A stretch of DNA of 63,557 nt, the filler included, from Bilabrum cf. latius (lineage: Eukaryota), in assembly GCA_965178125.1 (NCBI GenBank). It is 3 parts of 3 records of this genome, joined end to end, with 100 filler letters (N's around TTAATTAATTAA, not from the genome) between each part and the next. Parts side by side here need not be neighbours in the genome. Positions count along the whole stretch, not along the records: positions 1 to 26,702 come from CBCXTV010000031.1; positions 26,803 to 53,341 come from CBCXTV010000032.1; 1 more part is not named here. The stretch is one strand, 5' to 3'. The position numbers and the translations under genes were made by a program. Within the stretch, counting starts at the first letter, position 1. Every line of letters starts with the position of its first letter. The notes beneath the pieces were generated by a model. The model had not been told where the DNA came from and did not search any database. It saw only the letters and a program-made list of their open reading frames with translations. Positions 620 to 53,341 of the stretch are shown here, in pieces.

Positions 620-868
620 GGGAAACGGATGCACAACGGTATGCCACCCATGTCCTCGAGGAATCCACCAAGACGTTGTGGCCCGAGGTAGTGCGATTTT
701 CGGGAGAAGGATTCTTAGTACCTTATAGGGTACCCCCCAGGATCGCACTACGTGGGTTTGGGGGGTTGGTTTCCTTTCCTCTTGTTTTCGTGTGCACTCT
801 TCTGCGACCGCCCCCCCCGGGGAACGGATGCACAACGGTATGCCACCCATGTCCTCGAGAGATCCACC
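620..868 (+). repeat. ~50-bp direct repeat (620-669 and 820-868) bracketing the left origin-like hairpin
   Basis: AACGGATGCACAACGGTATGCCACCCATGTCCTCGAG..ATCCACC occurs on both sides of 688-820. Confidence 0.9.
688..820 (+). promoter_or_regulatory. Putative rolling-circle origin stem-loop, left copy
   Basis: GTAGTGCGAT (688-697) pairs with ATCGCACTAC (742-751). The loop contains TCTTAGTAC (713-721). The segment is a diverged ~130-bp direct repeat of 12133-12260. Confidence 0.6.
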
Positions 869-1072
869 GAGATCCGCACATACCTCTGCGGTGAACAGCA
901 CGTTACATGAGACCCTGACCGACCCGAGAGTCTCTGCCCTCAGTCTCCACGACTTCCCGCAGGATCCGCCCCGCTCCCACCGACGGCTCCTGCCGTACGT
1001 ACGACGCACCATTTTCAAAAGAGCATTGGCACCCGCTCCTCACCTAAGCGACGATACTGTCGCTGCGGTCCC

Positions 1073-2137
1073 TCACGGCACGCTCTCCGGTCCGCCCGGT
1101 GCGAACTCAGAGTCGTCGTCTGTCGAAACGTGGTCGCTGTGGAAGATGTTGCTCTGGCCGTCTGAGGACACGGCATCCTGCCAGTATCGACGCAACTGCT
1201 CCGCCACGTCCATGGCCGCATGGGAGCTCAGCGGGATCTGCTCGAAGAGAGCGTTACTGTCGTGCACTGCAAACAGCCTGGCCGCGACGCGATCTTGATG
1301 GCAAATTTCGAGTGTGGCGCGGATCCGGAAACAGTAGCCGTCCGGAAAGTTGCCCTGCATCAACTGGTCCTCCACCGCACACTGCGTGCACCAAATAGAC
1401 CGCTCGGTACGTCGTATGTAGCCGGGCCACAGGGAATGCAGCAACGAGTACTGAGCCCGACGCAAGCTCTTCGGGTTGAAGCTGTCCGCCTGCTTGACCC
1501 GACTGCAGGCCTGGCACTTGAGGTTGGTGATCACGGCCGACTGCTCCCCAGCCAAATACCAGATCGTACGCGAGCGCAGCCTACGAGGAATCCACTGGCC
1601 CGACTTCCGGGGCACGACCATCGCCAAGAGCTTCGACTGCGGCGCGTCGATCTGCACCCTCGACCCGCAATCGCTGAGCGTAATGGCGTCGTCGAACACC
1701 CACGTGCCGCCCCAAGCATGACGCCTGCGCTGCTGCCGGGAGCTCGGGTTCGGTACCTCGCGAGGCCTGTCGGAAGGGGGGTCCGTCGGCTGCGGTGGTG
1801 TCGGATACCAGGAGAGAGCGGTCCACGGATTGATGCACGTGGACGTTGCCGCCTCGCGCGTCGCCGGAGTGGCTGAGCTGTCTGGTCGACGAAACGGTGG
1901 CGCCCACGCCGTGCAGGCCGCCACCTGCGCGGGCACATCGGGCAAGAATGCGCCTGCAGGTTCACGTGGCCGAGGTCGGGGAAGCTTCGTCGGGGTCAGG
2001 GATCCCATCGAGGAAGCCGCGTTCGCCGCTGGGATGGTCGTGCTCGAGGTTGACGAAGTCGCGTTCGCCCCTGACATGGTCGTGGTCGAGGTCACGGCAT
2101 GGCCGCCGAGGGGTGAGCGCGATCGCGGGGGGTCCAT
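1073..2137 (-). CDS. Hypothetical CxxC...CxxC zinc-finger protein (Stc1-like spacing), 354 aa
   Basis: ATG start, low-complexity N-terminus, then LKCQACSRVKQADSFNPKSL...IWCTQC. It resembles the fingers in 8060-8911 and 27182-27969. Confidence 0.6.
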   Translation of the reverse strand: MDPPRSRSPLGGHAVTSTTTMSGANATSSTSSTTIPAANAASSMGSLTPTKLPRPRPREPAGAFLPDVPAQVAACTAWAPPFRRPDSSATPATREAATSTCINPWTALSWYPTPPQPTDPPSDRPREVPNPSSRQQRRRHAWGGTWVFDDAITLSDCGSRVQIDAPQSKLLAMVVPRKSGQWIPRRLRSRTIWYLAGEQSAVITNLKCQACSRVKQADSFNPKSLRRAQYSLLHSLWPGYIRRTERSIWCTQCAVEDQLMQGNFPDGYCFRIRATLEICHQDRVAARLFAVHDSNALFEQIPLSSHAAMDVAEQLRRYWQDAVSSDGQSNIFHSDHVSTDDDSEFAPGGPESVP

Positions 2138-3729
2138 CCGTTTAGTCTGCGGCCACGAGGCACGCGGCGAGCGTTACCACCGTGGACGCCTCCGTCGACC
2201 CCGTGTCCGGACGCGACTGGGGCCCTGTTGATGAGCGCATCGTGCGGGAGAGGCTGCTGCGGACTGCTGATGAAGCGGAGCTGGTCGACAGACGGAGCAT
2301 CGCTGGAGATGTCCTCCATGTCACACTCAAACAAGCGCCGTAGGGTCGAATGCAAGCGGCGCCTGCCGCTGGTAATGCCTGTCATATCGAAAGCGCCTTG
2401 CCACGAGCCAGACGAGAGCACTCTCTTCGTGCACTCAGCGACAACCCTGAGATGGCAAGAGACATCGACATGACCCGCTTCATGACGCGAGCGCTCCTGC
2501 ATCCACGTCTCCCGAAGGTCGCGCTTAAGAAGCTGAAAGACGAGAACGTCCAACGGCTGAAGCAAGAAGGTGAGTCGACCAGGAATAAACACGAGATCCA
2601 TGCCAAGGCCGTGTGCGAAGTTCACAATCTCAGTGGAAATGTGTTGGGGCGCGCAGTCAAGTATCACTATTGGATAGATCTCATGCTGAATGTCCATCCA
2701 AGAAGCGAAAAGCCGACGCAGAATGTCGAACATGAGGGACTGCGTCACCCACGAGCTCTCTCGGGCCCAGACTTCCATTCCGTCCACCATTTGGTTCGAC
2801 GCCCCACGCATCAAGCGCTTGCTCAGCCGCGTGTGCTTCCCGATGAGTATACGCGGGAGTCGTCGCTGGATTTCCGGGCAGTCGCTAATGAAACCCAGAA
2901 AGGTGTACGATCCTCGATTGCTATTCGAGGCGAGGCGCTCCGTGCGCGAACCAAGCGAAGCGGGCTCCGTTCCTGACCTCGGTGCGATGTACCCGCGCAT
3001 TCCCGGAAAGGCAAAGGGCACGCTGGACTCATCGAAGTTCACAAAGACGAGGCGGCGGTTGCGGGGCACTCGCGCTTCTGCGAATTCAATCCACTGATAG
3101 AAGACACGACACGCGAGTCTGACGTAATCGAGTGTTACCGGGGGCTGCTTCTTCAATCGGCCATGCCGAAGCCGCCAACGACGACGGAAGCGCAGGAGCC
3201 ACTGCCGTCGAGCCGAGTCCTTCCCCGCGCGAACGCCCATCCTCGCAAGCATGGCGAAAACCATGCTCCCAGTTGGAGCACACCCACGCTGCTCGTTCAC
3301 ATGGTCGATCCAAGCAACGACAGAAGCCTCGGCGAGAAAGGTCTCCGCGCGTGCCACGGACTCTCGATGACATGAGCGAAGAGGATTTCGCTGCCACGCC
3401 TCAACTGGGCGCCTCATGGTGAGCGCGACCTCCTCATCGACCTGCCTTTGAAACTCCTCCTGCGAAGCCGTCCGCGTGGAAACCTGTCGACTCTGCAACT
3501 GACGAGAGACATAGGTTCGAAGAGCTGCCTCGCCACCTCCGGGGTGATGACGAATAACCTCAGCGACCTGTGCCTCCATGGCGCGCAACCACGGATGGCG
3601 CAGCCCATTGCGCGCCCGTTGTCTCGCGTCTCTGAGACACTTCAGCTCCTTACTGATCCGTGCGAGCTGATCCGGCACCGAAGCAGAGGACATCATGACG
3701 CGTGAGGAACCGGGCAGAAGATCGCTCAC
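2092..3729 (-). CDS. pogo/Tigger-like (DDE_1 family) transposase, ~535 aa; likely ATG at 3693
   Basis: Catalytic triad motifs VNFDES, VILDCAPQH and FIPGRLTFLLQPLDVLVF. CENP-B/Tc5-type HTH signature WLLRFRRRW. Uninterrupted ORF. Confidence 0.9.
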   Translation of the reverse strand: MSDLLPGSSRVMMSSASVPDQLARISKELKCLRDARQRARNGLRHPWLRAMEAQVAEVIRHHPGGGEAALRTYVSRQLQSRQVSTRTASQEEFQRQVDEEVALTMRRPVEAWQRNPLRSCHRESVARAETFLAEASVVAWIDHVNEQRGCAPTGSMVFAMLARMGVRAGKDSARRQWLLRFRRRWRLRHGRLKKQPPVTLDYVRLACRVFYQWIEFAEARVPRNRRLVFVNFDESSVPFAFPGMRGYIAPRSGTEPASLGSRTERLASNSNRGSYTFLGFISDCPEIQRRLPRILIGKHTRLSKRLMRGASNQMVDGMEVWARESSWVTQSLMFDILRRLFASWMDIQHEIYPIVILDCAPQHISTEIVNFAHGLGMDLVFIPGRLTFLLQPLDVLVFQLLKRDLRETWMQERSRHEAGHVDVSCHLRVVAECTKRVLSSGSWQGAFDMTGITSGRRRLHSTLRRLFECDMEDISSDAPSVDQLRFISSPQQPLPHDALINRAPVASGHGVDGGVHGGNARRVPRGRRLNGWTPRDRAHPSAAMP

Positions 3730-4267
3730 AGCCGAAACGACGCGGACGGACCCGCTGCCAAGCTTCGCACTGCCTGTGGCCTCTGAAGATACCCGGGAGG
3801 GATAGGACGCAGGCGGGGAGCGAGAGCAAGCGAATGCCTTCCTGTCGCTGGAGGAGTGCTCAAAGCTGAAGACGCGCGGGAAGCACGCGCTCTGCTGCGG
3901 TCACACTGGCGCAAGCGAGACAAAACCAGGGAGAGGGATAGACACGTGCACAGCATTGAATACACCGCGCAGCATTGCGAGCGCGGTTTCTCGCCTGCGC
4001 TGAGCTGCCACTCTGCTCTCGTGCGGACGACATTGGCAACGGCAGCGCGTAGCTGCCAACTGGCCGTGCACGGGTACTGTATCGGCCACGGCAGCGCTGA
4101 GCTGCCAATTTCGGGTCGAGGAGCTCTCCTGAGGAAGACGAGGCCGGGAACTTTCGGCGAACACGCACACCCACCACCGCCCGGCACATGCGACGGCAAG
4201 CAATGTAAGGAACGACGTTGCGCGATCGAATCTCGACAGGAGGCTCCGATGCAGGAGCTGCCGAGGA

Positions 4268-4816
4268 CTAGGCACCGCCGGCGCCCGCCGCGCCGCTGGG
4301 GAGGACGACGGTCGGCGGCGGCGAGTCCTCGGAACCCATGTCGTCTGATCCTGAGGAATCCAGCACAGTTGAGGCAGTCTCGGTCATCTCCCAGTCCGTA
4401 CGCACCTCAACGATGAGACGACGCGGAGGAGCAGCGACTGCTGTGTCAGGTCCGTGGATGACGCCTCCGTCCACAAGACGGAAAGACCTACCCGCAACGG
4501 AGCCGCTTGCGCCAGACATCGCACGCCGAATCACGGGATCAAAGTCTGCATGGAACCGAGGAGCCTCATCGCGCAACAGGCCTGAGAGCAGCCTGATCAC
4601 ACTTTGGGCGTACTCCAGCTGAGCGCTCAAGCTTTCCGCACGCTGCTGCATGTTCTCGAAGCGCTGCTGCAGGTTCGACACCGCTGTCGAGTGAGGACTC
4701 GCTGGCGGGGCGGGGTTTGGGCGCTGCGGGGTCGCCACCGCGCGACGCGGCGACCTATCGCGGACAAAGGACGTCACCTCGTTCCGCGTCATGCTGCCGC
4801 ACCTCTCCTTCCTCAC
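4268..4816 (-). CDS. Hypothetical coiled-coil protein, ~175 aa
   Basis: Heptad segment LQQRFENMQQRAESLSAQLEYAQSVIRLL. The ORF stays open in the inverted copy at 61837-62382, which has a one-codon in-frame indel. Confidence 0.5.
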   Translation of the reverse strand: MRKERCGSMTRNEVTSFVRDRSPRRAVATPQRPNPAPPASPHSTAVSNLQQRFENMQQRAESLSAQLEYAQSVIRLLSGLLRDEAPRFHADFDPVIRRAMSGASGSVAGRSFRLVDGGVIHGPDTAVAAPPRRLIVEVRTDWEMTETASTVLDSSGSDDMGSEDSPPPTVVLPSGAAGAGGA

Positions 4817-5695
4817 ATTGACTCGAGCCGAATCGAAACTTGCAGGGACAGACGATCCTTTACCCTAGCGCTCCCCACATCGGGCATGAGTGGAATCCGA
4901 ACCAGCGCACGGCATCCCACAGGAGTTCGCACCGGGCTTGCCTCATGAGGAATCTTCCTGCGCGAAGAGGTAAAGCCACGGACAGAAGTCAGAGGTCGCG
5001 GGATGACACTCCAGCATACATGAGCTGCCCGCTGAATCCGCCGCCCCCGAGCCCCAAGCTGACAATCGAGGTAACAAAGTAGGAATGAGCAGGCGGGGGC
5101 GATGCCACTACGTCTCGCCGAACAGCCTGCCTCGCATGCGCTGTGCTGAAGACCTTATGGGAACCAGGAAGTGTGAACGTCTGTCACGTGAGGCGGAAGG
5201 GCTCCCACTGCATCACACCCCCTCTCTGGAATGGGATTTGGGCGCTGTGGGGTCGCCACCGCGCGACGCGGCGACCTATCGCGGACAAAGGACTTCACCT
5301 CGGTCCGCGTCATGCTGCCGCACCTCGCCGAATCGAAACTTGCAGGGACAGACGATCCTTTACCCAGCGCTCCCCACCCCGGGGATGAGTGGAAGCCGCA
5401 CCAGCGCACGGCATCCCACGCGAGTTCGGACCGGGCTTGCCTCATGAGGAATCTTCCTGCGCGAAGAGGTAAAGCCACGGACAGAAGTCAGAGGGTCGCG
5501 GGATGACACTCTAGGCACACATGAGCTGCCCGCAGAATCCTCCGCCCCAAGCTCCGAGCTCACAATCGAGGTAACAAAGTAGGAATGAGCAGGCGGATGC
5601 TTTGCCACTCCGTCTCGCCAAACAGCCTGCCGGGGAACCAGGAAGTGTGGACGTCTGCCACGTGAGGCGGAAGCGCTCCCACCGCATCACACCCT
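4715..5695. repeat. Imperfect tandem duplication, ~0.5-kb period
   Basis: 4716-5130 is repeated at 5237-5630, and 5160-5222 is repeated at 5633-5695. Confidence 0.9.
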
Positions 5696-5894
5696 TCCCG
5701 GGCAAGATATCTAGAGAGCTGCCCAATCCTGCACGAGAAACTCGGATTTTCACACGCTGCCGACCATATCGTTCCCAATCAAACGACCGTGCTCCTCCGA
5801 CGTCGCGCTCACCTCGGCGCAAGGATGACTCACTCGCGCTCTTCCTTCCGGAGCGCCCTCACAGTACGACGGACCCATTCGGGAAGCTCCCGCG

Positions 5895-7226
5895 TCACGC
5901 TGGCATCGTGAGGAGGAACCTTTCCGCATTCTGGAGAAGCTCCATGGCCCGCTTGATGTCATCCAAGGCCTCGTCACGCGAAGGACTCTGACGCACGGCG
6001 TTGCTGCAGGAGGCGGCGCCTCCTGCAGGAGGCTCGTCGCGTGCGGGAGCACGAGCGTCGTTGTCGCCGTCACCGGTATTCGCGCCAGCTTTTGGCACCC
6101 AACGCTTCGCTTCACCCGCAGAGGAACGGACATCATGGAGACTCCAGCCACGCGCAACCAGGCACTTCGCGCACCAGTCCTCAGGGAAGAAATAGCGCAG
6201 GTTCTCCTTCTTCCGGCGGATCTGGGGAAATCGGTACGCCGGATACTCGTTTTTGCAGTTCTTGCACCACACCCACCACGGCGTCGCGTTGTCGAACTTG
6301 TCGCAACACACCCGGCAAACTGGTTGGATCCAGTCCTTCCACTTCTTGAAGTACGCCGACCGGGGCTTGCAGCACTGGCACGCGTTGCAAGTCCATGTCG
6401 CCTCCTCCGCCGGCTCCGGCGCGACCTGCCGCAGCACGTACGTCTCCCCCCATGACGACTTCGCAGGGGGCTCCCATGGATCCCAGCTATCAGCGCCAGA
6501 GACCGCCCCGGCAGTGTGCGCAAGATTCACACGCTGCGATGACAATGCCTCTGCCACGCCGCCACCCGCCTTCCAAGCGGCTGCGTCGGTCCATACGTCG
6601 TCATTACCTCCGGGCACCACAGCACGTCCACCGCCGCGAGCATCCTCCTCCTCCGTCTTCTTGCCGCCGTCGTCTTCGGCGTCCTCCTTCGGCGCTGCCT
6701 TGCCGCTCTCCTCTCCGAGCATCCCCGTGGACGCCGCCTCCGCGCCGCCGCTCTCGATGTGGGAGCCGCCCGAATCATCGACGCTTGCCGCCGCGCCGGC
6801 GTGCTCCGCCGGGGCGTCGACCTCGCGCGCCAACATGCCGCCCTCGTTTCCCATATCACCGGCGCCTCGACGCCCACGAAGATTGCGGCCGTCTCCCAAG
6901 GAAACAGCAATGCTCTCGGACGGTTTCTCCTCAGACATCATCGGCAAAGAGACTCGGAGAATGCCGTTCCCGCAGAGTGCGCTGCTGACTCCCGAAGCCG
7001 AAAGAGGACCCGCGGAGAAGGAATCTCGCACATGCTCCCAGGAAAAGCAACTCCCCGCCCATTCCGAATGCAAGAACGGACTCCCGCCCTTTCCGAGATC
7101 GAGGGCGCATCGCGGGCGCATTTCCCGACTCGCGATCGGCCTCGGAAACCGACCACGAATCGGTAGGAGACGTGCGCCCGCGTTTGAAGAATACGCGGAG
7201 AAATACGAAGCCAAGGACACGAGCAT
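5895..7226 (-). CDS. Hypothetical protein with two CxxC...CxxC zinc-finger modules
   Basis: WTCNACQCCK...VCRVC and WCKNCK...WCAKC, preceded by an acidic, Gly-rich linker. Open copies occur at ~21290-22545, 55345-56667 and 59467-60759. Confidence 0.65.
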   Translation of the reverse strand: MLVSLASYFSAYSSNAGARLLPIRGRFPRPIASREMRPRCALDLGKGGSPFLHSEWAGSCFSWEHVRDSFSAGPLSASGVSSALCGNGILRVSLPMMSEEKPSESIAVSLGDGRNLRGRRGAGDMGNEGGMLAREVDAPAEHAGAAASVDDSGGSHIESGGAEAASTGMLGEESGKAAPKEDAEDDGGKKTEEEDARGGGRAVVPGGNDDVWTDAAAWKAGGGVAEALSSQRVNLAHTAGAVSGADSWDPWEPPAKSSWGETYVLRQVAPEPAEEATWTCNACQCCKPRSAYFKKWKDWIQPVCRVCCDKFDNATPWWVWCKNCKNEYPAYRFPQIRRKKENLRYFFPEDWCAKCLVARGWSLHDVRSSAGEAKRWVPKAGANTGDGDNDARAPARDEPPAGGAASCSNAVRQSPSRDEALDDIKRAMELLQNAERFLLTMPA

Positions 7227-7727
7227 CTCCCGGGCACCTTTCCCGACTCGCAGCCGGTCTCAGAGACGACCACGAATCGGCACGACAAGTGCGCCCGATT
7301 TCGTCCCCCGAAAAAGGACACAACTAGGACCCCGCGAGATCCGCATCTGCTCCTCACGCGCGGAACGTGTTTCGGTACGCAAAAAGCGGTCACATGGGAG
7401 GCCCGGAAAGCGTCCGGAAAACGGTTCAGAAATACCTTGCGTCACTCCTCCTGCGCGCCAGAAATCACACGACTTTTCGGTGACCGAAACAGGGCCCAAA
7501 AAACCAAAGATTTGCCCCTTCATGCCCGAAGACACAGCGTCACCGCCAAGCTGCCATCGCGGAGAAAATAAACCAGGTGGTGATGGAAAGTTACGTTACG
7601 GTGGAGCTCAGTGTCATTTGTGTGTTCAACAGTGTGTATGATGCCGCTTCGTCTGGATGTCCGAGTCCGGATTTCACCTGGGGTATGGCCTATTGTGTGG
7701 TCACGTTCGCGTAGCTTTCACGTGTCA

Positions 7728-7855
7728 ACAACGCGGAGGCTGCGAAAAGAACCATGCTCACGAACCATGCTCCACCGTAGCTTGATCACAACGCGGAGGC
7801 TGCGAAAAGAACCATGCTCCACCATAGCTTTCCAACAACGCGGAGGCTGCGAACG
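7728..7855. repeat. Three short direct repeats
   Basis: CAACGCGGAGGCTGCGAA(AAGAACCATGCTC) at ~7729, ~7788 and ~7836. Confidence 0.85.
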
Positions 7856-8059
7856 AACCGTGCACCACTGACCACCGTACAGCCCAAAAAGTACAAGTTT
7901 CTTGAACCCCAGGAGCAACATACGCGGGATACTGTCGAGCGCCCGTTCGCTCAGGTCACACGCGACAGCAAGCCGAACGCTCAGGTCGCACGCTCAGGCC
8001 ACACGCGGAAGCAGCGCCACGCAAGAGGCCAGGTTGAGAGGGAAAACCGTCACGCAAGC

Positions 8060-8911
8060 TCAACGCGGAGACCACGAGTCGTCATCGCTCCAAGCCTCGC
8101 GTCCAGACAGACGAACAAGCCCGCGCCATGCCTCATCGTAAAGATCCCTCTCGAAAACCCTGTGCTGCTTCATCGTTCCCAATGTCAGAATTTTCTCCGC
8201 AGTACAACGCTGCCCCTTCCGCTCCCCGGTCTCTACAATGAGATCCAACTGCATGCGAAGTGTTCCCGAGATCTTCTTCTTGTTCGCCGCGTTCATAATC
8301 GACGTCTTTGGCGCCGCGTCGCGCGCCTTCTCGCGACAAGCACGACAAGAAATCGCACCCCTGCCGCACGGAGAATCATCGGCATAAAGCGTGCGCTGCA
8401 CGCGACGTACGAGACGATCACGCATACGATGATTCAGGTCCGCCATGACACGATTGCAGCCGCAGGAAGAGCATACAAACTCCGCGAGGTTGAAAGCCTT
8501 AGAGTCCGACCAAACGACGCACTGTGTGTCCTGGGGTGCCTCACTGCCGAGCGCTGTTATGAGCACCGCCGGATGGGCCGGCGACTTAGGAAGAAGTCGC
8601 GAACCGGGAGGAAACACGCGAGGCCGCTTGAAACCGACATCTCCGGCAAGAGGCGCAAGCATCATCTCCACCTCGCCCTCCGGGGCGTGCTCGGAGGTCG
8701 ACGCGGCAACCACGGCCACATACGGTGCATCGGCGATACCGACGTAGGCCATCAAGCAACGCACCCACCTTCGGCCCGCGAGCGTACACGGCGCGCCTAC
8801 CGGAAGCAGAGGCTTCTGAGACCAAGAAATGTCTCGTCGGCGCGCGACGCGGCGACGTAAAAGCAAACGACCCGCCGGGTCCCAACCGCGGCACTGCGGA
8901 GACACACACAC
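8060..8911 (-). CDS. Conserved element zinc-finger protein (ortholog of 27182-27969); start uncertain
   Basis: VCSSCG...RLVRRVQR...SCRAC...PKTSIM...GTLRMQLDL...DLYDEA aligns by eye with SCEMCG...RVRRRVRR...RCRDC...PKNMVL...GAVKMTLEL...DLWAAA. Confidence 0.7.
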   Translation of the reverse strand: MCVSPQCRGWDPAGRLLLRRRVARRRDISWSQKPLLPVGAPCTLAGRRWVRCLMAYVGIADAPYVAVVAASTSEHAPEGEVEMMLAPLAGDVGFKRPRVFPPGSRLLPKSPAHPAVLITALGSEAPQDTQCVVWSDSKAFNLAEFVCSSCGCNRVMADLNHRMRDRLVRRVQRTLYADDSPCGRGAISCRACREKARDAAPKTSIMNAANKKKISGTLRMQLDLIVETGERKGQRCTAEKILTLGTMKQHRVFERDLYDEAWRGLVRLSGREAWSDDDSWSPR

Positions 8912-9156
8912 ACTTGCAACCCATCAGGCTGGGTGCCACGTGTGTGTGTGTCAGGCAAGCTCCCAATACTAGGCAAGCACTCCCCCGGACGAACGCGACG
9001 GACCACATGAAACTTGCGGAATGCCCCCATGTAGAAACCACATCCTTTTTGCACACGAAACGCATTGAGGACATTAGACCTTCAGGAGCACCGAAGCGGC
9101 TGCCGCTGCGGCTCCGGCGCTCGTGTGAACCGGACTGAAAACCTCAGCGGCCGGCG

Positions 9157-11442: not shown

Positions 11443-11950
11443 TATTTGCGCAAATAATCCTTCGACGAATCGCGGAATGCCTCAAGATAGAACACTTGCC
11501 TCCGACACGCAATGCCCAGAATCCTTGCTGTTCGAAACACCGAAACTGCTGACACGGGACACACATGAGCACCGAGGCAGCTGAGTCTGCAGCTCGTGCC
11601 GCCCTGGGCGAGGTAGTACCGCTTCCGAGGGAAGGATTCTCGAAGCCAACGAAGGAAAGCATGGCGTTGCAATTAGCACGATCACAAACGCACTTCGGAG
11701 CCTGCCAGAGAGGATGACCGACCGACCGCCTTCTCGAACATAGAAACCGGCGAATACCACATGAGGCACGACGTTCCAGGGCATCCGAACCTGCGACATA
11801 CGCCAAAAAGGCCTCGCCGACAACCTGAAATGCACGCGAAATCGACAACCGAACGCCCAAAATCAGCCATCGGAACCCCCCCTCGAGGCAGCGCCTTCGG
11901 AGACATTTTCGGCCAGCGAAAAAAATGCGAAACACGACTGGAGGAGGCGA

Positions 11951-19497: not shown

Positions 19498-19513
19498 GCC
19501 ACTCTAGGGCCTC

Positions 19514-40531: not shown

Positions 40532-40538
40532 AAGGACC

Positions 40539-42629: not shown

Positions 42630-45562
42630 GGCAGCCTCGAGGACACGCAGGTCAGTGACTGGCGGCAGCGGTGGGCCCGGCCACTTCCGCTCAGTGCTGC
42701 TCGCAAATGCGCTTCGGACACAAGGACAATCGGGAAAATGCATGTACCGGGGCATCCCTGGCGCACTGAAGCACTGAATGCCGGCTTGGAAACACTGTGA
42801 CCCGGCAAGGGGTTTTGCTGTGGCATCCTGTGAACCTCATCCCAGACTGGTGCGGGGCGGCTTTTGCTCCTAGTTCCGGTCCCCATTTCCGGGGCCGGAA
42901 AACGGCCCCAAAACAAGCACGAAAAAAACCGAAACTGACTGTGCGGATCGCTCTTTTTCGGCACGTTTTCTGGGCCGGAAAACGGCCCCGGAAACGGGGA
43001 CCCGACTTCCAAGCATCTCGGGCGTCGGATCCAAGCCAAATTTCGTCTCGCACAGGAGGCGGTTTTCATCACCGGGCGCCACCACCGGCTACAACCTCGC
43101 CCACTCACTGAGCCGCCCACACACAGCAACAGCGAACCGGGACGAGAGAGATGAGAGACGAGAAAGAGAGCGACAGAAACAAGGACAGATGAGAGAAGAG
43201 CGAAGAGACGAAGAGAGAGGAGGAAAGAGATCGGAGAGACAAGAGGCGAGGCAGGAGAGACTGGACGCCCGCCCACCCGCCCGCCCGCCCGCCCGCCCCG
43301 CCCGCCCGCCCGCCCGCCCGCCCGCCCGCCCGCCCGCCCGCCCGCCCGCCCGCCCGCCCGCCCGCCCGCCCGCCCGCCCGCCCGCCCGCCCGCCCGCCCG
43401 CCCGCCCGCGCCAGCGCCCCGTGCCTCCTGGGGCTAAATGATTGGGTTCACCAGACTTTTTGCTGCTACTTTCAGGAATTGACAACTGCTGCAGTCCGCA
43501 TGATTCACCTCAAAAGATGTGGTGCTTTGCGCGCGCGTGATCCTGCCGCAACTTCCCCTTCCGTAAGTATGCCCGGACTGGGCCCGGCCCGGCCCCAGGC
43601 CCGGCCCGGGCCCGGGCCCGGGCCCGGCCCGGGCCCGGGCCCCGGCCCGGGCCCCGGCCCGGGCGCAGGCCCAGGCCCGGGCCCGGGCTCGGGCCGGGGC
43701 TGGGCCCGGGCCGGGCCCGGGCCCGGGCCCCGCCCGGGCCCAGGCCCGGGGCCCGGGCCCGGGCCCGGGCCGGGCCCGGGCCCGGCCCGGGCCCAGCCCC
43801 GGCCCGAGCCCGGGCCCGGGCCTGGGCCTGCGCCCGGGCCGGGGCCCGGGCCCGGCCCGGGCCCGGGCCCGACCCGGTCTCGGGCCCGGCCAGGGCCCGG
43901 CCCGGGCCCGGGCCCGGGCCCGGGCCCGGGCCCGGGCCCCAGCCCGGGCGCAGGCCCAGGCCCGGGCCCGGGCTCGGGCCGGGGCTGGGCCCGGGCCGGG
44001 CCCGGGCCCGGGCCCGGGCCCCGCCCGGGCCCGGGCCCGGGCCCGGGCCCGGGCCCGGGCCCGGGCCCGGGCCCGGGCCCGGGCCGGGCCCGCCGCGCCC
44101 GGCCGGGCCCAGCCCCGGCCCGAGCCCGGGCCCGGGCCTGGGCCTGCGCCCGGGCCGGCGCCCGGGCCCGGCCCGGGCCCGGGCCCGGCCCGGTCCCGGG
44201 CCCGGCCAGGGCCCGGCCCGGGCCCGGGCCCGGGCCCGGCCGGGGCCCGGGCCCGGGCCCGGCCTGGGCCCGGGCCCGGGCCAGGGCCCGGGCCTGGGCC
44301 CGGGCCCGGGCCCGGCCCGGGCCCGAACCCGGGCCCGGGCCTGGGCCCGGGCCCGGGCCTGGGCCCGGCCCGGCCCGGGCCCGGGCCCGGCCCGGGCCCG
44401 GGCCCGAGCCCGGCCCGATTAGGTTCACCAAACATTCTGCTGCAACGTTCAGGAACTGACAGCTCCTGCAGTCCGCAGTATTCACCTCACATCATCGGTG
44501 CAAGAATGTCGATCAAGTGCCTTGCGCGCGTATGATCGTTCCGCAGGTTCACCGACGGAAGCCTTCTTACGAGTTCTCGTTCCTCCAACTGAGTATGGTC
44601 GCCACGCCTTCTGCTGCACTTTTCACGAACTGACAATTGCTGCAGTCCGCACTCTTCACCGGCTCACATTATCGGTAGGAGCGACGGGCGGCGTGTGCAA
44701 AACGCAATCAGCACGAGCGGGCCCGGCCCGGGCCCGGGCCCGGCTCGAGCCCGGGCCCGGGTCCGGGCCCGGGCCCGGGCCCGGGCGCGGGCCCGGGCCC
44801 GGGCCCCGGGCCCGGGCCCGGCCCGGGCCCGGGCCCGGCCCGGGCCCGGCCTGGGCCCGGGCCCGGGCCAGGCCCGGGCCCGGGCCCGGGCCCGGACCCG
44901 GGCCTGGGCCCGGGCCCGGGCCCGGGCCCGGGCCCGGGCCCGGGCCCGGGCCCGGGCCCGGGCCCGGGCCCGGCCCGGGCCCGGGCCCGGCCCGAGCCCG
45001 GGCCCGGGCCTGGGCCCGGGCCCGGACATCTCACATCATGGGCGCAAGAATGTCGATCAAGTGCTTCGCGCGCGTATGATCCTTCCGCTGGCCCGGCCCG
45101 GGCCCGAGCGCGCGGTGCGCGCCCACCGGGCCTCAGCGCGCGCCGCCAGCGCGCGCGACGCACGCGCGCGCGGAGCGCCCGCGCGCGCGGGGGCCCCGGC
45201 CCGCGGCCGGGGCTCCGGGGCCCCGGCCCGCGCCGCACCCCGCCCGCCCCGACCCGGGTGGGCCCAGCCACTCCCCGGCTCCTCCCGGGTGGGCCCGGCC
45301 ACTCCCCGGCCGGACGCCCGCATCCGACCCCCTGCCCCCCCACCCCCCCTAAAATTCGAGAAGGCGAAACACTTCCCTTAGGATCTACTCGAGGAGGCGT
45401 GCACCTGGCTGCTTCTCGCGTGGCGTTTTTTCCCGGCCGCGGCGCTCCCGCGGCGTTTTTTGGTGCTTTCCCCCATACTGTCGTGCGATTTCGTGCCGTT
45501 TTTTTCTGGCTTTCCCCCATATTGTCGTGCGATTTTGGCCTTTTTTCCTCCTAAGCCTGCCC

Positions 45563-45800
45563 GGTTCGGAGTCGGGGGCTGTTTACCTTTAAAAAATTTT
45601 AATAGTTAGAGCGCCCCGCAACTCCGAATCGTAGGGGTAGTTCGGAGTCGGCTCGGAGTCACTCGGAGTCGCTACCCCTCTAGCTCGGAGTCCGATTTGG
45701 GGGTCCAAAACTGGGCTTTTTTGCCACTTTCAGAAAAAAAAACCCAAGCGAAAACGCGTTTTTTTGGCTCAAAAATCGCAAAAAAATGGGGAAAATGGAC
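45563..45800 (-). promoter_or_regulatory. Putative origin of Element 2, second copy
   Basis: Copy of 30903-31140 at +14,660. Confidence 0.6.
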
Positions 45801-46682
45801 ACCCCGCGGCGTCTTCTCGCAAGAGACGTGGCCCCGGGCCGCGTCGGGGCCGGGTCTGGGCCGGGCCCGGGCCCGGCCCGGGCAGGGCCCGGGTCCGGGC
45901 CTCGTCCGGCCCGGGCCCGGGCCCCGGCAGGGCCCCGGCCGGGTCTGGGAGGGGCCGGGGCCGGGCCCGGGCAGGGCCCCGGCCTCGCCCGGGCGGGGTC
46001 TGGGACGGGCCGGGGCCGGGCCCGGGCCGAGTCTGGGACAGCCCGGGCCGGGTCTGGGACGGGCCGGGGCCGGGCCCGGGCCCCGGCAGGGCCCGGGCCG
46101 GGTTTGCAACGCGGTGACATGCTCGAGGCGGCGGGGGGGGGGGGGGGGGGGTATGGCCGGGCGGGGGGGAAGGCGGGCGGGCGGGCGCACGGGGGACGCG
46201 GGCGGGCGGCCGGGCGGGCTGGCCGGGCGGGGGCGGGCGGGGGGCGGGCGGGCGGGGAGCGGGCGGGCGGGGGGGGGGGGGGGGGGCTGGGCGGGCGGGG
46301 GCCCGGTCCGGACCGGGCCCCGGCCCCGACGGGGGCCTGGGCCGGGTCCGGGCCGGTCCCGAACCGGGGCCCGGGCTGGGCTTCGGCCGGCAACAGGAAC
46401 GCACATTCGCCTCGCACTGTTCGCATGGACTCCGCCGCCTCCGAGGCCGCACCACAAACTCGCACAACTCTCTGCGACGACTCCCGCTCCCCCGCCCTGT
46501 GAGCGCTGGCTCATGCTCGGCGTCGGAGGCCCCCGGTGCGCCGCTCATGCTCGACCCACGCATGCGGCGCGAACAAAAAATATGCAGATCCGGAGAGATA
46601 AACATCACTGGGGCTTGGCAAATCGGGCGGGGGTGTGGGCACGGCCACTCCACCCCCCTGCGCTTCGCCTCGCGGCCGGGAC

Positions 46683-48080
46683 CTAGTCTTCCCATATCTT
46701 GACCTTGATGTCCACCGGGCATGAATTCTCCTCGACCCAAGCGCGCGCTTCCATGTCCACCGCGCCGCACCCTTTCCAGAACTCGTTGCTACGGACATGT
46801 AGGTTACTCAAACGCTGTATACACAGCCGTTCATGTAGGTTACTCAAACGCTGTATACACAGCCGGTTCCCGGAACTTTCAAGACCAAGACAGAAATTGA
46901 TGGCATCCATTGGATGGTTTCCGGACGAGATCATAAAAACGCAATGCGTACCATGATCAACGAAAAAAGTCTATAAGGAAAACAGACCCCGCCCGCCCGC
47001 CGACAGGAAAAAACAACCGGCAAATATGTGAGGTTGCAAACGGCTGCGGCTCCTTGTCCCTTCCCGGCGCGACCCGACGGCGCTTGGCGACGAGGCTCTG
47101 GCAGTACTGGGACCTGCCGAGCGGCTGCATCCGGCTGAACCACTTGAATGGCTTCCGCCCGACAGCTTCGACAATTAGCTGCCGGCGTGGTGACCGGGCC
47201 GTCTGCAAAGCGGCTGGCCGAGCCGCTTGGCGCAGCGTTTGTGCCGCCGCCTCCCCCTTGGCCGCCGGAAGCAGAGGCGACAGAGTCTGACCCCCTTGTG
47301 CACGGAAACAAAAGCGCGGTCCCTGGCCTCGCCTACTCGCGGATGCTCAGCGCTCCAAGCGGGGGCTCGGCCACACCGCCTACGCGCGCGGAACCACTTG
47401 AAGATCAACGCCCGACAGCTTCGACAATTAGCTGCCAGCGTGGTGACCGGGCCGTTTGCAAAGCGCCTGGCAATTGCAGGCGAAGGCTCCGTTCGGGGGG
47501 GACGACCTGCTGGCGAATTCCGCGCCTTCTGCTACCCCAACGACAAATTCGATGTCGTCCGCGGCCGCGCGCCGCAGCGTATGAATCTGCAGCAGGGCCG
47601 CGGGTATGATAAGAGGCGGGAGTGGCGGATCCTATGACGCGTGTGGTGGTGTGTGGCTGTGGGTGTGCGTGTGACAGGAAAAAATCTCTCGACTATCAGC
47701 GTCCGAAGACGGAGCCCCCAGGGAGGCATCTATCAAATTATGATCTCGTCGACAAACAATCAAAATGGATGCCTCAGCAACGGGACCACATAACAGAATT
47801 GTGCAATGCAAATGACTGCTGTTTCCAATTTGCAATTCTTGGAGCACTGATCAGGGTCGCCCGCAGGCATGCCAACTACCATCTGACGAAAAACAACCCC
47901 GCCATGCAGAGCAAGGTGAGCGACCGGCTTCACACTGCATGCACACGCAGGAATGAATAAAACGCGCTCCACTCGAAGGCAATTTGACTCACCCACATAC
48001 CAGATGCCTGCAGACGAAGCGAAACATACAAAATCGCAATGCGCTGGGGGCAAGACGATGGCCAAAAAAACTCCGATGTG
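46683..48080 (-). pseudogene. rep: Decayed rep, second copy
   Basis: Copy of 32023-33420 at +14,660. Confidence 0.65.
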
Positions 48081-49118
48081 TTTGACCGAGCGTTCATTTG
48101 TTCAGTGGCACCAGACCGCGAACGGATCCCCCCCCGTCCAAGGGGGGGGCCACAACCCCAGACGCCTGGTCCGCGCCTGCAGCACGACCGCGAAGAAAAG
48201 GACAGTCCGTGCAAACCGCCGGCAAAGCGTCGCCGCACAAGCTGCTGTGCTGGCAACACCACTGCAACAGCGGGGGGCCCGGCGTGGTTCGAACGATGGG
48301 GGGGCACGGCCACTCTCCTGGCAGATCCGTCGGGGTGCGGCCAGGCAAGCACCTCCACCTGGTCGCAGCCGGAGGCGGACGCATCGCCATCCGCGTCCCC
48401 GAAGGGGAGTGCGGACCAACCGTACGCTTCGGCATCAGGAGCAGGGACTACCGTCTCGACGCCGGACGCCATCGGCGCCTGAGGATTCGTATCGCATTCG
48501 AGGGTTGAGGGCCGCGCAAAATGCGCTCCTGGCCGGAAGGTATGCGGCACAGACGGAACAAAGAGGCTGCATGTGGCATGCCATGACAACCTGGACACAC
48601 TTTCACGAATGCGCAGCAGCTGCACGAATGGGATGTTCGGGCCGGGGCCCGGGCCCGCCCCCGGGCCCCGGCCCCGGCGCCGGCCCGGGCCTGGGCCGGG
48701 GCCCCGGCCCCGGCCCCGGCCCCGGCCCGGGCCCCGGCCCCGGCCCCGGCCCGGGGCCGGGGCGGAGGATGAGGTGAGAGTGACCTGGCGCACAGTGGCA
48801 CACAAGAGTGCCATGACGAAAACGGACACATTCTGAGAAACGCTCAGCATGCCGGGCCGGGCCCCCGCGCCGGGCCCGGGCCGAGCCCGGCCCCGGCCCG
48901 GCCCGGGGCCCGGGCCGGGGCGCGGGCCCGGGCCCGGGCCCGGGAGGCGCGCGGCGAAGCGGTCGGGCGGGCACCGCCCGGCCGCAGCCAGGGGCCCCGG
49001 CGCGCAAACGGGGGATCCCACAACATGCTTTCGCCAAGGGTCTTGTCGCTTCTCGGCTCACATGCGCGCGCTGTGAACTCCCACTCTCTTTCCGGCAGCC
49101 GAGGGCAATGCAGGCAGG

Positions 49119-51024
49119 TCAGTACATCGCGCCGGACCTTGTCCGGCGAGGGGCGGGGGGCTCGGCCACTCCTGCCCTGGCGCCCGCGGAGGCGCCCGCG
49201 GAACTCGCCGCGACAGGACCGGACTTTGCTCTTGCGAGCGGCGGCCCCAGTCGCCTGGCGACCGGGACAGGGCGAGCCACAACGGCAGCAGCCCCTTCAA
49301 GCCGTCTCCGAAGGAAGCGCCGAGGGGGCCCAAGAAGAGACTGAAGCATGAGCGGAGCCGGTCGCCCCAGGAGCTCCGCGAAATCCTCCGGCGACGGCGG
49401 CGCCAGAGGCAGCGGCAAGGTCGTACCCAAAGCATCAGAGATGCGCGATCGGAGAGTCGCGCCGGGTCCGCGCAAGCCGTTGGCCCACATGCGCCCCGCG
49501 CTGTCTGTGTCCACCACATGCTGCCGCATCGCGGCCGCAGCGATATCGATCCACCGCCCTGGAGGCAAAACGCCGTCCGCGCTCTCTGCCCGACAAGTCG
49601 TCTGCCCGGAGCTGATGGCGGCTTTGAGGTGTTGGAAGACATGCGTGTCGAGCGGCTGCAACAGCCAGGTCATGGATGCCGGGACGAGCGCGACGAAAAG
49701 GCCCAGGCGCGCGATGTGGTTGACGACTTGCCACGACAAGTGCTGCGGTGCGCAGTCCATGACCAGGACCACTGGCCGACCAGGATGTACCTCCCTGCAA
49801 GCTCGACGAACCCGGGTCAGGATGCCGCAAAAGACCGGCCCGGTCACCCAGCCCTTCGTGCCAGGGATGTGCACCAATGGGGCGGCCAAGACCGCCAGTC
49901 TCTCTCGATCGGCTCGTGTCATGCGCTCAGTGTGTGGCAGGAGGATCTGGGGCAAGCGCGCATGGACCTCGGGGTCGTCGGCAATCGCAGCTACATAGGT
50001 CATGTGGCCTCTCGCTTCCCGCAGACTGATGCGCGCATACCGCTGCCGACCCACAGCGGCTAACTTCCCCACACAATGGCCTCGTCTTGGAGCCATTCCT
50101 CGCGAAATGGCCGTTTCGTCGAGGTTGACGACAATGTAGGGCTCGTCCCGAAGGACCCCGAAGCGCAGCCACTGGCACCACTGGAAGAAGGCCGCGACCT
50201 GGGTCGCCCAGGAACGGAAATCTCGGCTGATTTTTCCGAAAACAGGTCCCCGTTTTTGGGGCCGTTTTTTGGCCCCAAAAATGGGGACCCCCTATTATGC
50301 GGACAATAGGGTGGCCCCATTTTTGGGGCCGTTTTTCGGCCCCAAAAATGGGGCCAAAAACTGCCCCAAGAATCGGCCCAGAATTTCGCCCACGGACCTT
50401 CCGGCTCTGCATCTCGGGGGCTACAGCGGAGCGCCAAGGCATGATCCGCAACCGGACGTGCCACCTCTTCCGAAACCTCAGCGCCCAATTCTTTCTGAAC
50501 CCGCCCCGCCGCAGTTGCGCCACAAAAGCGGGGTACCGGCCGCGCCGCTCTGCGACTGGCCAGTTCTCGACCAACCACTTCGCCACCTCCGCGACTTTCG
50601 GCGAGGAGCCCCTCGTGTTAGCATCGTTGATGCGGAGGACGACACGAGCCTCAGCGACGACCATCGCGGCCCGCCAAGCGAGCCGACTCTGGACTGCTGC
50701 CTCCAAGTGGCCCGTCGCGACGCTCACCACACTCGCCAGCGCGAGGGCGGGCGGTGCGGGGGCCCTCGGCCCGCAACCCGGGCGCGCGCGCTTGCCACAT
50801 CGATTTTGCATGACATGAGTAGCGATGAGATCCCATTCACTTCCCTCATGGGACAGGCTTTGGGCGACGCGCAAGAGCACCCAGCGAGAAAACGACAGTC
50901 GCTTTGGCAAGGCATGCTCCCTCGCTCGCCTCGTTGCTCGCCGCCCTTCTCTCTGCAGCTCTTGCACAATTTCCTTCTGCGCCCTGATCATCGCTTCTAG
51001 CTCTCTGCGGGCGACGGCAGGCAT
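49119..51024 (-). CDS. pogo-like transposase, second copy (intron 50199-50397)
   Basis: Copy of 34459-36364 at +14,660. Confidence 0.88.
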
Positions 51025-51916
51025 GCTGGTGAGGGCAGGCTGACGCGAGGAGCTTGGGCCCAAGGGCGCTGCATGCCCGTCCCTGCTTCACCATGTGGCC
51101 CGCCCACCCAGGTGGGCCTCTCCACCGCGACCCCTTTCTTACACACACTCATCGTCTTCCTCTTACCCTGAGCGACATGCGTCCCACACCTAACTCAAGA
51201 CATGGTGTGCCTGAGGCGTCGCCTGGCGTCGACGACAGCAGCGCTGACACGAGACCGGGCGGTCTTCCTGAGCGCCACCGTCATCTTATGCAGGGCTGTT
51301 TTGGTCTCTTGGCGCGCCTCCCGAATCTTCGCCGATGCGCCGATGTGCTTCACTCATGCGCTCCATCTCCGCTACCATGACTGAGTCGCCTCCGGGCGTC
51401 AAGACTGTTACCTGTGGGGGCTGGCCAAACCAGAGACACGAAACCCGGACAAGAATGTTACTGGACGGGGGAATGAAGCCATGTCACACTCACTTTTAGT
51501 TGTCCTCTGACGCTTAGTCTTAGTCCTAGCCCTACACGCACTCGCCTTTGCACTCGACTGCGGACAACGTTGGCACGCTCATGCACACAGGTGTCACTCA
51601 CGGAACGCAGGAGAAGATGCGCAGACGCTTATCTGGAACGGCCGCGCCTCCTTGTTGGAAAGATCTTGCTCTGAGTCTGACGCCTTGTGCAGGGAAACAA
51701 AAGCGCGGTCCCTGGCCTCGCCGTACTCGCGGATGCTCAGCGCTCCAAGCGGGGGCTCGGCCACTCCGCTTTGTTTGCTTCACTCGCGCCCGGTGCGGGA
51801 AATGCCCGAAGACTCGAGCCCTGGCGCCTCACCTCTCAGTGGGCCGGGAAAAAAAGGCCGCCCTCTCGGGGCGGACCGGTGCCGACATCTCGGGACTGGC
51901 GACTGTCGCCGGTTCC

Positions 51917-52460
51917 TCAATCAGCGCGCTCCTCTTCCTCCTCTTCCTCGCGGGGCCCGTCAGGGCCGGGGTGGACCTCGCTGCTGCTGGCGGCGCCTGT
52001 CGCCGTCGAAGGCCCACTGCCGGTTGACGCCGCGCCCTGGGCTGGCGCCACCTCTGCGGCGCGCGCCGCTGCAACGGCCTCGAGCTCCGGCGCGGTCCAC
52101 TTCTTGGCCGCAGCGATCTCGAGCAGATCTTCCAAATCTAGTCTCGTCGCCCTGCGCATGAGGCGTTTGTGGCGCCGGTTCCCCTTCGCTATTGTCTTTG
52201 GGGGCGACATGGGGATGACACCTAGCTCATGACATGGACTGTCTGGGGCCGGACCCTGGCTCCGGGACGGAAGTGCTGACATGAGACGGGGCGCTCCCTC
52301 TTGAGCTCCACCCCCATCTTATTCATGGCCTTTCTGGCCTCTTGCCGCGCCTCCCGAATCTTCGCCACAGTGGCGATGTGCTTCCCTGATCCGGCGCATC
52401 TCGCCTTCCGGGCTGAGTCGGCATCGGGCCTCCGGACTCGAATCGGAGGCGGGTGGCAAA
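51917..52460 (-). CDS. Small coiled-coil protein, second copy
   Basis: Copy of 37257-37800 at +14,660. Confidence 0.55.
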
Positions 52461-52996
52461 AGCAAAAGCCGGAAACCCGCTGAAGAATGGCTGAGGTGGG
52501 AAGCATTTGGCCACTAGCCTCGTGTCCGCAGTACATACACACAGTCGTCACTTCCACGCTCGCCACAGAACCCTGGGAGGCCACGAACCTCGGCCGCTAG
52601 GGCCCGCTCACTCAAACGTTCCGGCCCTGGCCCCAGGGCCCGGCCCCATGTCTGACGGAGAACCCTGGGTGGCCACGAAGGTGGGCCGCCCGGGGCCGCA
52701 CCACCACACGATCAGGCCCAGGGCCCGGGGCCGGACCGGGCCCGGCTAGGGCCCGGGGCCTGGCCACTGGCCGGGCCCACATGGGGTCGACCAGACCCAT
52801 GGCAAATGCGACGCATGCTGGTATGACAAGGCACTCGAATGACTGATGCTTTCTGCCACCAGAACCCGCGCGCCCCGGCAACCTCAGAGATGTTGCGGCG
52901 CGCGACCGGCGCGCACTTGCAAGTGAAAGGGCGCGGCAACGGCCAAGGAGTGGACGCAGGGGCACGGCCACTCTGCATCAAAACGGGCGCCTGGGC

Positions 52997-53341
52997 CTAG
53001 CGAGCGCTCTCTTCCCAGATCTTCACCGCGCGGGCAAGGGCCTCCTCTCGGATCTGCCATTCCCGCGACCAAAAGGTGCAGGCCTCGCACACCTGGCAGT
53101 TACTTGGTGTCAGGCTCATGGGGGTCAAGTTCGCCACGCCAGTGAGCCGGAACGCAGGGCAGCTCGTCGCCACCTCCGCGGCAACTCTCGCGCAGGCCAT
53201 GCTCGTGTGCCGCCCCGACTTGCACAGGAGCACCACCGTCAGCTGTGTCCCGTTTGCCGTCCCCTCGCGCATGGCCGCCAGCATCGCGAGGGCCGCGGGC
53301 TGCACGACCTGCCGGAAGTTGGCATGGCACACGATGGGGCC
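52997..53341 (-). CDS. 3' end of the glycosyltransferase/RapZ-C-like gene, second copy, truncated by the gap
   Basis: Copy of 38337-38681. Confidence 0.7.
   Translation of the reverse strand, partial: GPIVCHANFRQVVQPAALAMLAAMREGTANGTQLTVVLLCKSGRHTSMACARVAAEVATSCPAFRLTGVANLTPMSLTPSNCQVCEACTFWSREWQIREEALARAVKIWEESAR

Follow-up and report, generated by a model that had tools for sequence, protein, structure and literature searches.

A 63,557-nt stretch of DNA assembled from Bilabrum cf. latius (GCA_965178125.1; below, the window) encodes both a replication protein (Rep) resembling those of CRESS replicons (single-stranded DNA circles that encode a Rep) and pogo-type DDE transposases, and the question it raises is whether the two enzymes belong to one mobile element. 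N spacers divide the window into contig A (1-26702), contig B (26803-53341) and contig C (53442-63557). The first-pass annotation had proposed a new family of large elements combining the two enzymes with conserved cargo. The explanation favored here, with a probability of about 0.6 for the whole, is that all three contigs consist of repetitive DNA from a GC-rich eukaryote colonized by one mobile element family of 12-15 kb, a pogo-class transposon with terminal inverted repeats (TIRs) and TA target sites that carries a Rep replicon module and would be copied by rolling circle. There is good support for the element family and for its mobility of the pogo type, and rolling-circle episomal replication is plausible.

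The proposed core module comprises a pogo-type transposase with a DDD triad, a CRESS-like Rep with HUH endonuclease and superfamily 3 (SF3) helicase domains, and a small Zn-ribbon protein, accompanied by variable cargo that would include proteins of glycosyltransferase-A (GT-A)-like type. Integrated copies, with TIRs of ~25 bp and a duplicated TA, would be cut and pasted by a Tc1/mariner/pogo-class enzyme, presumably the family's own DDE protein. Rep would introduce a nick at an origin, from which an excised or circular form would be amplified by rolling circle, a role suggested by its intact catalytic motifs, by a circular 13-kb relative and by the head-to-tail arrangement of 1.8 units in contig B.

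The Rep unit of contig A

Contig C, as the reverse complement, is ~99% identical to sequences flanking positions 7435-19421 of contig A. The counterpart of A 3093-7434 is C 63557-59258, and that of A from 19420 onward is C from 59257 downward, thus ~12 kb present in A is missing from C. The missing DNA is an 11,987-bp unit on the minus strand (7435-19421; the inner unit) with flanks that match C on both sides. It contains the genes for Rep, a Zn-ribbon protein, a small basic protein and an 836-aa GT-like protein, while a DDE hidden Markov model (HMM) found nothing significant within it. The unit is bounded by 25-nt TIRs, the left (7435-7459, plus strand) with the core CGTCACTCC and the right (19397-19421, minus strand) with an inverted copy of this 9-mer, that match at 16 of 25 positions around the perfect core. 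The 9-mer occurs only twice in 63.5 kb, at the two ends of the unit and inverted, and a 21-nt degenerate end pattern that includes the TA was matched twice in the window versus 0 expected. At both ends exactly 5 nt separate the core from a TA target-site duplication (7433-7434 and 19422-19423), the junctions reading ...GAAA-TA/CCTTGCGTCACTCC...GGAGTGACGGAGAG/TA-CCGTCG....

The same site in contig C (59254-59259, minus strand) reads ...GAAA-TA-AG-TA-CCGTCG..., that is, both TAs and the last two bases of the inner unit. This is the footprint classically left by excision of Tc1/mariner-pogo elements; reading the site instead as an insertion between TA and AG without duplication would make the symmetric TA a coincidence. 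Filled junctions were also present in contigs of public sequencing runs (left and right in X2, right in X3 and X10), as was the footprint junction (X3 and X4). No pristine empty site was found within the window. The footprint-bearing copy points to a recent excision, and the elements are therefore probably still active and accessible to experiments.

The flanks of the inner unit carry an intact DDE gene, pieces of the 836-aa gene and three Rep fragments on the minus strand between 22702 and 25880 (22702-23172, 23934-24128 and 25065-25880; Rep HMM E 3e-17 to 6e-20) with 85-94% amino acid identity to the intact Rep. Judged from these sequences, the flanks are an older, scrambled copy of the same element family. 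The inner unit, with the only intact Rep of the window, is a DDE-less derivative nested in that copy and would have to be mobilized in trans. An independent insertion of each transposase, with its own TIRs and TA duplication, had been named as an outcome contrary to the family. That outcome was borne out in part, though unexpectedly for the Rep unit: TIRs and TA were found around it, whereas the search around the transposase gene of contig A returned only pairs of 19-22 nt, GC-rich (77-84%) and judged to be chance. The TIRs, the TA duplication and the footprint are consistent with the earlier proposal of integration through a DDE enzyme, the family's own DDE being the presumed agent.

Rep, the pogo-type transposases and their linkage

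The high G+C content of the window (57-77%) produces long open reading frames (ORFs) in all six frames, and an ORF was counted as a gene only with homology or a signal in the G+C content at third codon positions (GC3). The Rep gene annotated at 9157-11442 was confirmed as an intact minus-strand ORF encoding 761 aa with HUH and P-loop motifs (GC3 0.72). A collection of 5.8 billion proteins contained 11 relatives with 30-53% identity, none with a Pfam domain or informative name. Residues 370-761 are the conserved half, containing LTWNGxWG, an invariant Glu, HFH, HYYxQxPKxG and the conserved SF3 motifs Walker A (GxSxxGKT), Walker B ((I/V)FDE) and motif C (CTN). Alignments of 12 and then 65 members revealed the invariant residues E443, H456/H458, Y506, K511, G630-K631-T632, E672 and N718. 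The metal-binding H456-F-H458 of the HUH motif, the catalytic Tyr Y506 and K631 were invariant in 65 of 65 members, and T632 in 12 of 12. Since the catalytic and ATPase residues are invariant in 65 diverse members of a very large family, the results indicate selection on the enzymatic function of Rep.

The alignment-based AlphaFold model of Rep (mean pLDDT 85.3) was compared with known structures by Foldseek. Both domains matched AAV2 Rep68 (E 2e-7) and Vientovirus Rep (E 5e-6). Matches confined to the C-terminal half were the folds of papillomavirus E1, AAV Rep40 and B19 NS1. Against BFVD, CRESS Reps were matched with E 1e-14 to 1e-9 over ~400 columns; among the best 50 matches the named ones were nearly all CRESS-type Reps, more than half were nameless and one was a parvovirus NS protein. 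A second look at the model with VIA-align was taken up by generic AAA+ ATPases (Z 10-12) and was uninformative on the HUH domain. Pfam searches (Viral_Rep, Gemini_AL1, Parvo_NS1) matched none of 12 members and then gave only a weak Gemini_AL1_M match (E 0.0012) in 2 of 65, and a PDB profile search with Rep matched no Rep structure by sequence. The motifs and the two-domain structural matches of the model thus indicate that the label CRESS-type HUH+SF3 Rep is right as an architecture, for a protein outside the curated Rep families.

A Rep profile search of 1.84 billion 50%-identity cluster representatives returned 720 matches at E <= 1e-30, 1,665 at 1e-10 and 2,439 at 1e-3. A scan of 185,579 prokaryote species, one genome each, yielded a single match (L037, 1-1859) on a 1,859-nt contig of a metagenome-assembled genome labeled Proteobacteria, probably a mis-binned eukaryotic or mobile fragment. 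No Rep relative was found in the IMG/VR viral contigs. The Rep family is large, unannotated and apparently non-prokaryotic.

Both annotated pogo-type transposases were borne out by Pfam DDE_1 and by mutual homology. The transposase of contig A is encoded by an intact minus-strand ORF in the older outer copy (2092-3729; DDE_1 E 1.5e-11), and that of contig B by two frames (34462-35631 and 35270-36427) spanning 34459-36427 on the minus strand, somewhat beyond the 36364 first assigned. The two proteins are 31.6% identical over 193 aa (E 8e-25). The NxDE(T/S), DxxxxH and QPLD motifs, which are characteristic of pogo-type enzymes and contain the catalytic Asp triad, are present in all six aligned DDE proteins, those of A and B and four metagenome homologs. 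Close homologs of the A protein are few, with 56-64% identity, and the next matches are at 23-25%. Inside the B gene lies a strongly folding palindromic module (35585-35696, also 50245-50356), coincident with the frame change, and a counterpart lies at 3902-4111 of the metagenome locus L029 (DNA fold z -8.2 and -11.4). The modules share CC(C/A)AAAATGGGGCC and are found at corresponding points within the DDE genes of two divergent elements; they could be a miniature inverted-repeat transposable element, an intron or a cis-acting site.

Linkage of the two genes was evaluated in 36 JGI metagenome loci encoding a Rep relative, obtained from a pattern scan of contigs, in which DDE genes were sought by BLASTP and the DDE HMM. 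A DDE gene is on the Rep strand in 5 of the 36 (L002, L014, L029, L033 and, as a fragment, L036), including all three loci longer than 10 kb; that of L014 matched Pfam DDE_1 with E 4e-5. The proposed union of Rep and pogo as a family is supported by these loci and does not extend to the Rep unit of contig A, from which the pogo gene is excluded. A quick maximum-likelihood tree with 31 Reps placed the window Rep and the five linked loci on separate branches: three of the linked loci fell in three starred clades, and the other two at distinct positions within a single group of weak support. L029 and L033 were nearest to each other in Rep (49%) as well as in DDE (40%). The Rep relic of contig B (below) was matched best by the Reps of L033, L034 and L029 and its DDE by those of L033 and L029. 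The nearest relatives of the A genes, P0004 (Rep homolog, 53%) and P0161 (DDE homolog, 58%), are each encoded on one 14,535-nt contig, probably the same contig.

Gene order is partly conserved, with an ORF718-like gene, DDE and Rep in both B and L029, and Rep followed by the Zn-ribbon gene in both A and L001. As annotated, the genes share one strand (all minus in A and B) and differ in order. A search for TIRs in L002, L014 and L029 found nothing convincing. Near-duplicate loci were identified by blastn with 87-99% identity (L031/L036; L014/L015/L028; L009/L019) or by ORF clustering only (L006/L007; L024/L025), results indicating that the elements recur across samples and that the 36 loci represent fewer independent lineages.

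The second subfamily, origin-like features and cargo

Contig B contains 1.81 head-to-tail units of 14,660 bp (26803-41462, minus strand), with 26803-38681 identical to 41463-53341 (100% over 11,879 nt); this form may reflect a circle or a tandem array, or may be an artifact of assembly. The order on the minus strand is a 718-aa ORF (ORF718), a small basic ORF, DDE, a Rep relic, a 3.3-kb GC satellite and the Zn-ribbon gene, compared with an ORF718-like gene (34% over 144 aa, E 7e-22), DDE and Rep in L029, and DDE and Rep in L033 and L036. The decayed Rep reported at 32023-33420 was recovered in part. The A Rep gave no tblastn match in contig B at E <= 0.1; the Reps of L033, L034 and L029 located a relic of ~35 aa extending from motif C to the C-terminus (32029-32136, minus strand; E 4e-4 to 9e-4), and the remainder (32137-33420) is unrecognizable. 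The relic is convincing based on its position downstream of DDE, as in L029, L033 and L036, and a decayed Walker-A-like stretch upstream of it is suggestive only. Contig B is best read as a decayed copy of a second subfamily. No abutting TIRs were resolved in B, where the search was swamped by palindromes of the GC satellite. In two subfamilies the DNA immediately downstream of Rep is a short-period satellite array, that of B (28600-32000, also 43260-46660) with 76% GC and periods of 8-12 nt, and that of L002 (3275-4400) with a 9-nt period of GGCTTGGTT type.

At its two termini the locus L014 carries a 99-nt direct repeat, as expected of a closed circle, here of 13,056 bp, and it encodes ~11 same-strand ORFs. 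Upstream of its Rep (964-1039) is a (TA)n-centered palindrome with repeated TGCCTGTTTGG that looks more like an origin region than a TIR. At least 19 hairpins are dispersed over L014 (1-13155), mostly between ORFs. They keep the core GGGGAGCTTGCAGCCCC between flanks that vary but are complementary, and look like a gene-end or terminator signal. In the inner unit of contig A, 47-nt iteron-like direct repeats (2.3 copies, 7762-7868) are located near the left end and a hairpin with 23-nt arms (8901-8952; fold z -3.6) between the Rep and Zn-ribbon genes. Both parts of the iteron-plus-hairpin origin predicted by the first-pass annotation are thus present in A, but they are ~1 kb apart and accompanied by no canonical nonanucleotide. 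Neither these features nor the L014 palindrome are proof of an origin.

The expectation of conserved cargo held for the Zn-ribbon gene and failed for the basic gene and the glycosyltransferases. The Zn-ribbon genes of A (8060-8911, minus strand, directly downstream of Rep) and B (27185-27991, minus strand; first placed at 27182-27969) are homologous as annotated, with 28.6% identity over 140 aa (E 1e-7) and a shared CxxC...CxxC pattern. L001 encodes a homolog directly downstream of its Rep, as in A (HMM E 2.4e-15). The small gene at 12619-13323 (minus strand), with a basic coiled-coil-like C-terminus, had been paired with an ortholog in B (37257-37800), but the weak similarity to B 37257-37850 was not significant (E 0.025 over 32 aa).

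The 836-aa protein (13965-16475, minus strand; GC3 0.77) has seven full-length homologs with 34-69% identity, an invariant E103-x-D105 (EDD) at a DxD-type position, and atlas neighbors GT25/GT11 at 0.89. Its low-confidence model (pLDDT 54.6) matched Mimivirus R655, COLGALT1 and vaccinia H3 best in Foldseek (E 1e-3 to 3e-2), the top GT25 and GT-A proteins reaching no better than E 1.3e-3, which are leads only, and PDB sequence profiles returned nothing relevant. These three weak lines suggest that the N-terminal ~230 aa are probably a GT25-like GT-A domain, itself a lead. ORF718 of B (38337-40493, minus strand), with a homolog at L029 1-756 and atlas neighbors GT2/GT7C at 0.89, possibly has a GT2-like N-terminal domain; it has no detectable similarity to the 836-aa protein. 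Even at E 10, Pfam returned no meaningful match to the GT-like, basic or Zn-ribbon proteins. The claim of a glycosyltransferase in each unit is therefore weaker than first put, since the two ORFs have no detectable homology to each other and no Pfam match, leaving the GT-A folds as leads.

A 1.26-kb direct repeat with 98.7% identity (5896-7152 versus 21291-22547; ~1.26-1.37 kb) flanks the 12-kb inner unit, and arrays of 72-nt tandem repeats in the flanks (22983-24470; 53598-54668) include Rep-derived DNA in other frames; the repeat and the arrays account for long pseudo-ORFs such as 21119-23176. The long ORFs at 5895-7226 and 21119-23176 and several in B were rejected as genes, being GC-driven or overlapping Rep-derived DNA in other frames. 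An Rfam scan of the window found no RNA family. Within 6900-19900, four public runs agree with one another and differ from the assembly by 1-nt homopolymer indels, for example at 18222, 18264, 19324 and 19433, and much of the ~1% difference between A and C may be sequencing error. DNA nearly identical to 7435-17400 (83-89% of sampled words) occurs in 10 runs from 6 studies with 6 organism labels, and one public run contains 29,339 variant contigs over 13 kb of the window. The carrier of the element may be an associate or symbiont common to several of the sampled organisms, or the element may be very high-copy. There were no RNA data among 24 public runs with window-like DNA.

Alternative explanations and relation to known systems

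Several results weigh against a transposon family that replicates through its own Rep. The inner unit, with its own TIRs and TA, excludes DDE, showing that linkage of Rep and DDE is not obligatory; 31 of the 36 loci have no DDE, although most are 1-4 kb and too short to judge, and flanking sequence without DDE extends downstream for 4.3 kb in L035, with 3.1 kb in L019, 3.0 in L009, 2.7 in L024 and 2.4 in L001. The Rep-linked DDE proteins score 55-107 bits across subfamilies, versus 53-135 bits with two DDE-1 proteins of unseen gene neighborhood, P0163 and one from Durusdinium; since the scores are no closer within the linked set, a single ancient union of Rep and DDE is not demonstrated and repeated capture is possible. 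Motif III of Rep is an invariant Y506-x4-K511 (HYYCQAPKxG) and not the canonical YxxK, the canonical CRESS nonanucleotide ANTATTAC is not in the window, contig B is without a working Rep, and the circularity of L014 is read from its terminal repeat only. No junction of a circularized inner unit (19421 to 7435) was among 15 of 56 joints recovered from public runs, an absence that means little since all four runs compared consist of contigs. The 1-nt homopolymer differences from those contigs also make the frameshifts of the window uncertain.

Among the alternatives, an integrating virus survives best, though it is improbable. A small protist DNA virus replicated by Rep, with DDE as the integrase and a capsid too divergent to be seen, would account for the 13-kb circular L014 with its ~11 same-strand ORFs and dispersed gene-end hairpins. 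It would also agree with the structural proximity of Rep to viral Reps, the viral identity of the atlas clusters nearest to the GT-like cargo, and near-identical DNA in runs of at least six organism labels. However, no capsid or packaging gene was recognized, Pfam matching nothing of the kind in the window ORFs and nothing at all in 8 of 10 L014 ORFs (the L014 ORFs were not folded), the same outcome as in the first annotation of the window. Furthermore, the IMG/VR viral contigs contain no relative and 12-15 kb exceeds the capacity of known CRESS capsids.

A somewhat more doubtful explanation is a giant pogo transposon moving purely by cut-and-paste, with a captured Rep that is passive or repurposed as a regulator or nickase. 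The only marks of mobility observed are indeed TIRs, a TA duplication and a footprint, and neither a circle junction nor a canonical origin was found in the sets described above. The invariance of the catalytic and ATPase residues across so large a family, the circular relative L014 and the perfect head-to-tail 1.8-mer of B weigh against this explanation. Least likely is that a Rep element and unrelated pogo transposons are chance neighbors piled up in a repeat graveyard with no composite family, for although the Rep unit of A has its own TIRs and TA with the pogo gene 3.7 kb outside it in a different nested unit, the flanks are a scrambled repeat mosaic and DDE monophyly is not demonstrated, DDE lies on the Rep strand in three of three Rep loci above 10 kb and in two shorter ones of separate Rep lineages, B and L029 have their gene order in common, one DDE carrier (L014) is a closed 13-kb circle, and the outer copy of A contains Rep and 836-aa gene fragments of the same family beside DDE.

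The Rep-bearing transposon favored here shares with pogo/Tigger elements of the Tc1/mariner superfamily the DDE_1 domain, a DDD triad with QPLD, duplication of a TA target between short TIRs, and a footprint of 2 nt left by excision. Pogo/Tigger elements are typically 1-3 kb, whereas those described here are 4-10 times larger and encode a replication protein and cargo, and the copy with the intact Rep is without its own transposase. Teratorn, reportedly a piggyBac transposon fused with a herpesvirus, is similar in combining a cut-and-paste DDE transposon with a self-replicating viral module; it differs in transposase superfamily and replicon type, in its size of ~180 kb and in its animal host.

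CRESS-DNA virus (Cressdnaviricota) and pCRESS Reps, as characterized in passages of Kazlauskas et al. 2019 (PMC6668415), are similar in having HUH and SF3 helicase domains and a single conserved Tyr, and provide the best two-domain structural matches. CRESS replicons are 1-6 kb, whereas the units here are 12.0, 13.1 and 14.7 kb. The viruses encode a capsid and have a nonanucleotide hairpin, neither of which was found in the Pfam scans and the window, respectively. CRESS and pCRESS replicons have either no integrase or a tyrosine/serine recombinase, in contrast to the DDE transposase with TIRs of the present family, and integrative bacterial pCRESS plasmids are described in those passages as bordered by direct-repeat attachment sites, not TIRs. 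Replitrons and Helitrons are likewise eukaryotic mobile elements encoding a Rep-class HUH endonuclease. In the passages of Craig 2023 (PMC10288648) on Replitrons, the Y1 Rep has an oligomerization-like domain and no helicase domain. Helitrons have a two-Tyr Rep fused to a PIF1/SF1B helicase (RepHel), 5'-TC...CTRR-3' ends and no TIRs, whereas the Rep described here has an SF3 helicase and one Tyr and its element has TIRs of the form CC...AG. In both groups Rep is described as the transposase, with no TIR/TA marks, unlike the element described here.

The first-pass annotation knew of no element uniting such genes; however, a geminivirus-like transposon of Tuber melanosporum is a precedent. In passages of Liu et al. 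2011 (PMC3198968) this eukaryotic repeat is multicopy, encodes one Rep-like and two transposase ORFs, contains a microsatellite and has 37-bp TIRs with no obvious duplication. The microsatellite recalls the satellites just downstream of Rep in B and L002. Compared by description only, the Tuber Rep is recognizably geminivirus-like, whereas the window Rep has no Pfam or PDB sequence match. The host is a fungus, the transposase type is not given in those passages and no target duplication is reported, in contrast to the TA duplication found here. Full-text literature searches, whose scope leaves aside Repbase, Dfam and supplements, found no other described family of Rep plus pogo. To the known type of TIR transposon that bears a Rep, the present family adds a pogo-type enzyme that is now defined, duplication of TA, an excision footprint, a relative in circular form and an orphan family of Reps that is very large.

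The Rep family, with 1,665 cluster representatives at E <= 1e-10, is outside Pfam and solved structures by sequence, and is consequently missed by profile-based surveys of viruses and transposons. In a broader and tentative reading, for which the odds are somewhat short of even, the family would be an unnamed and widespread protist lineage that combines a TIR/TA cut-and-paste transposon with a Rep-driven rolling-circle episome, a eukaryotic counterpart of integrative plasmids that could pass from chromosome to circle and back, and perhaps from one host to another. If true, this dual lifestyle would link Tc1/mariner-pogo transposons with CRESS-like replicons and would provide a route for Rep genes into eukaryotic genomes and for the persistence of plasmid-like replicons in protists.

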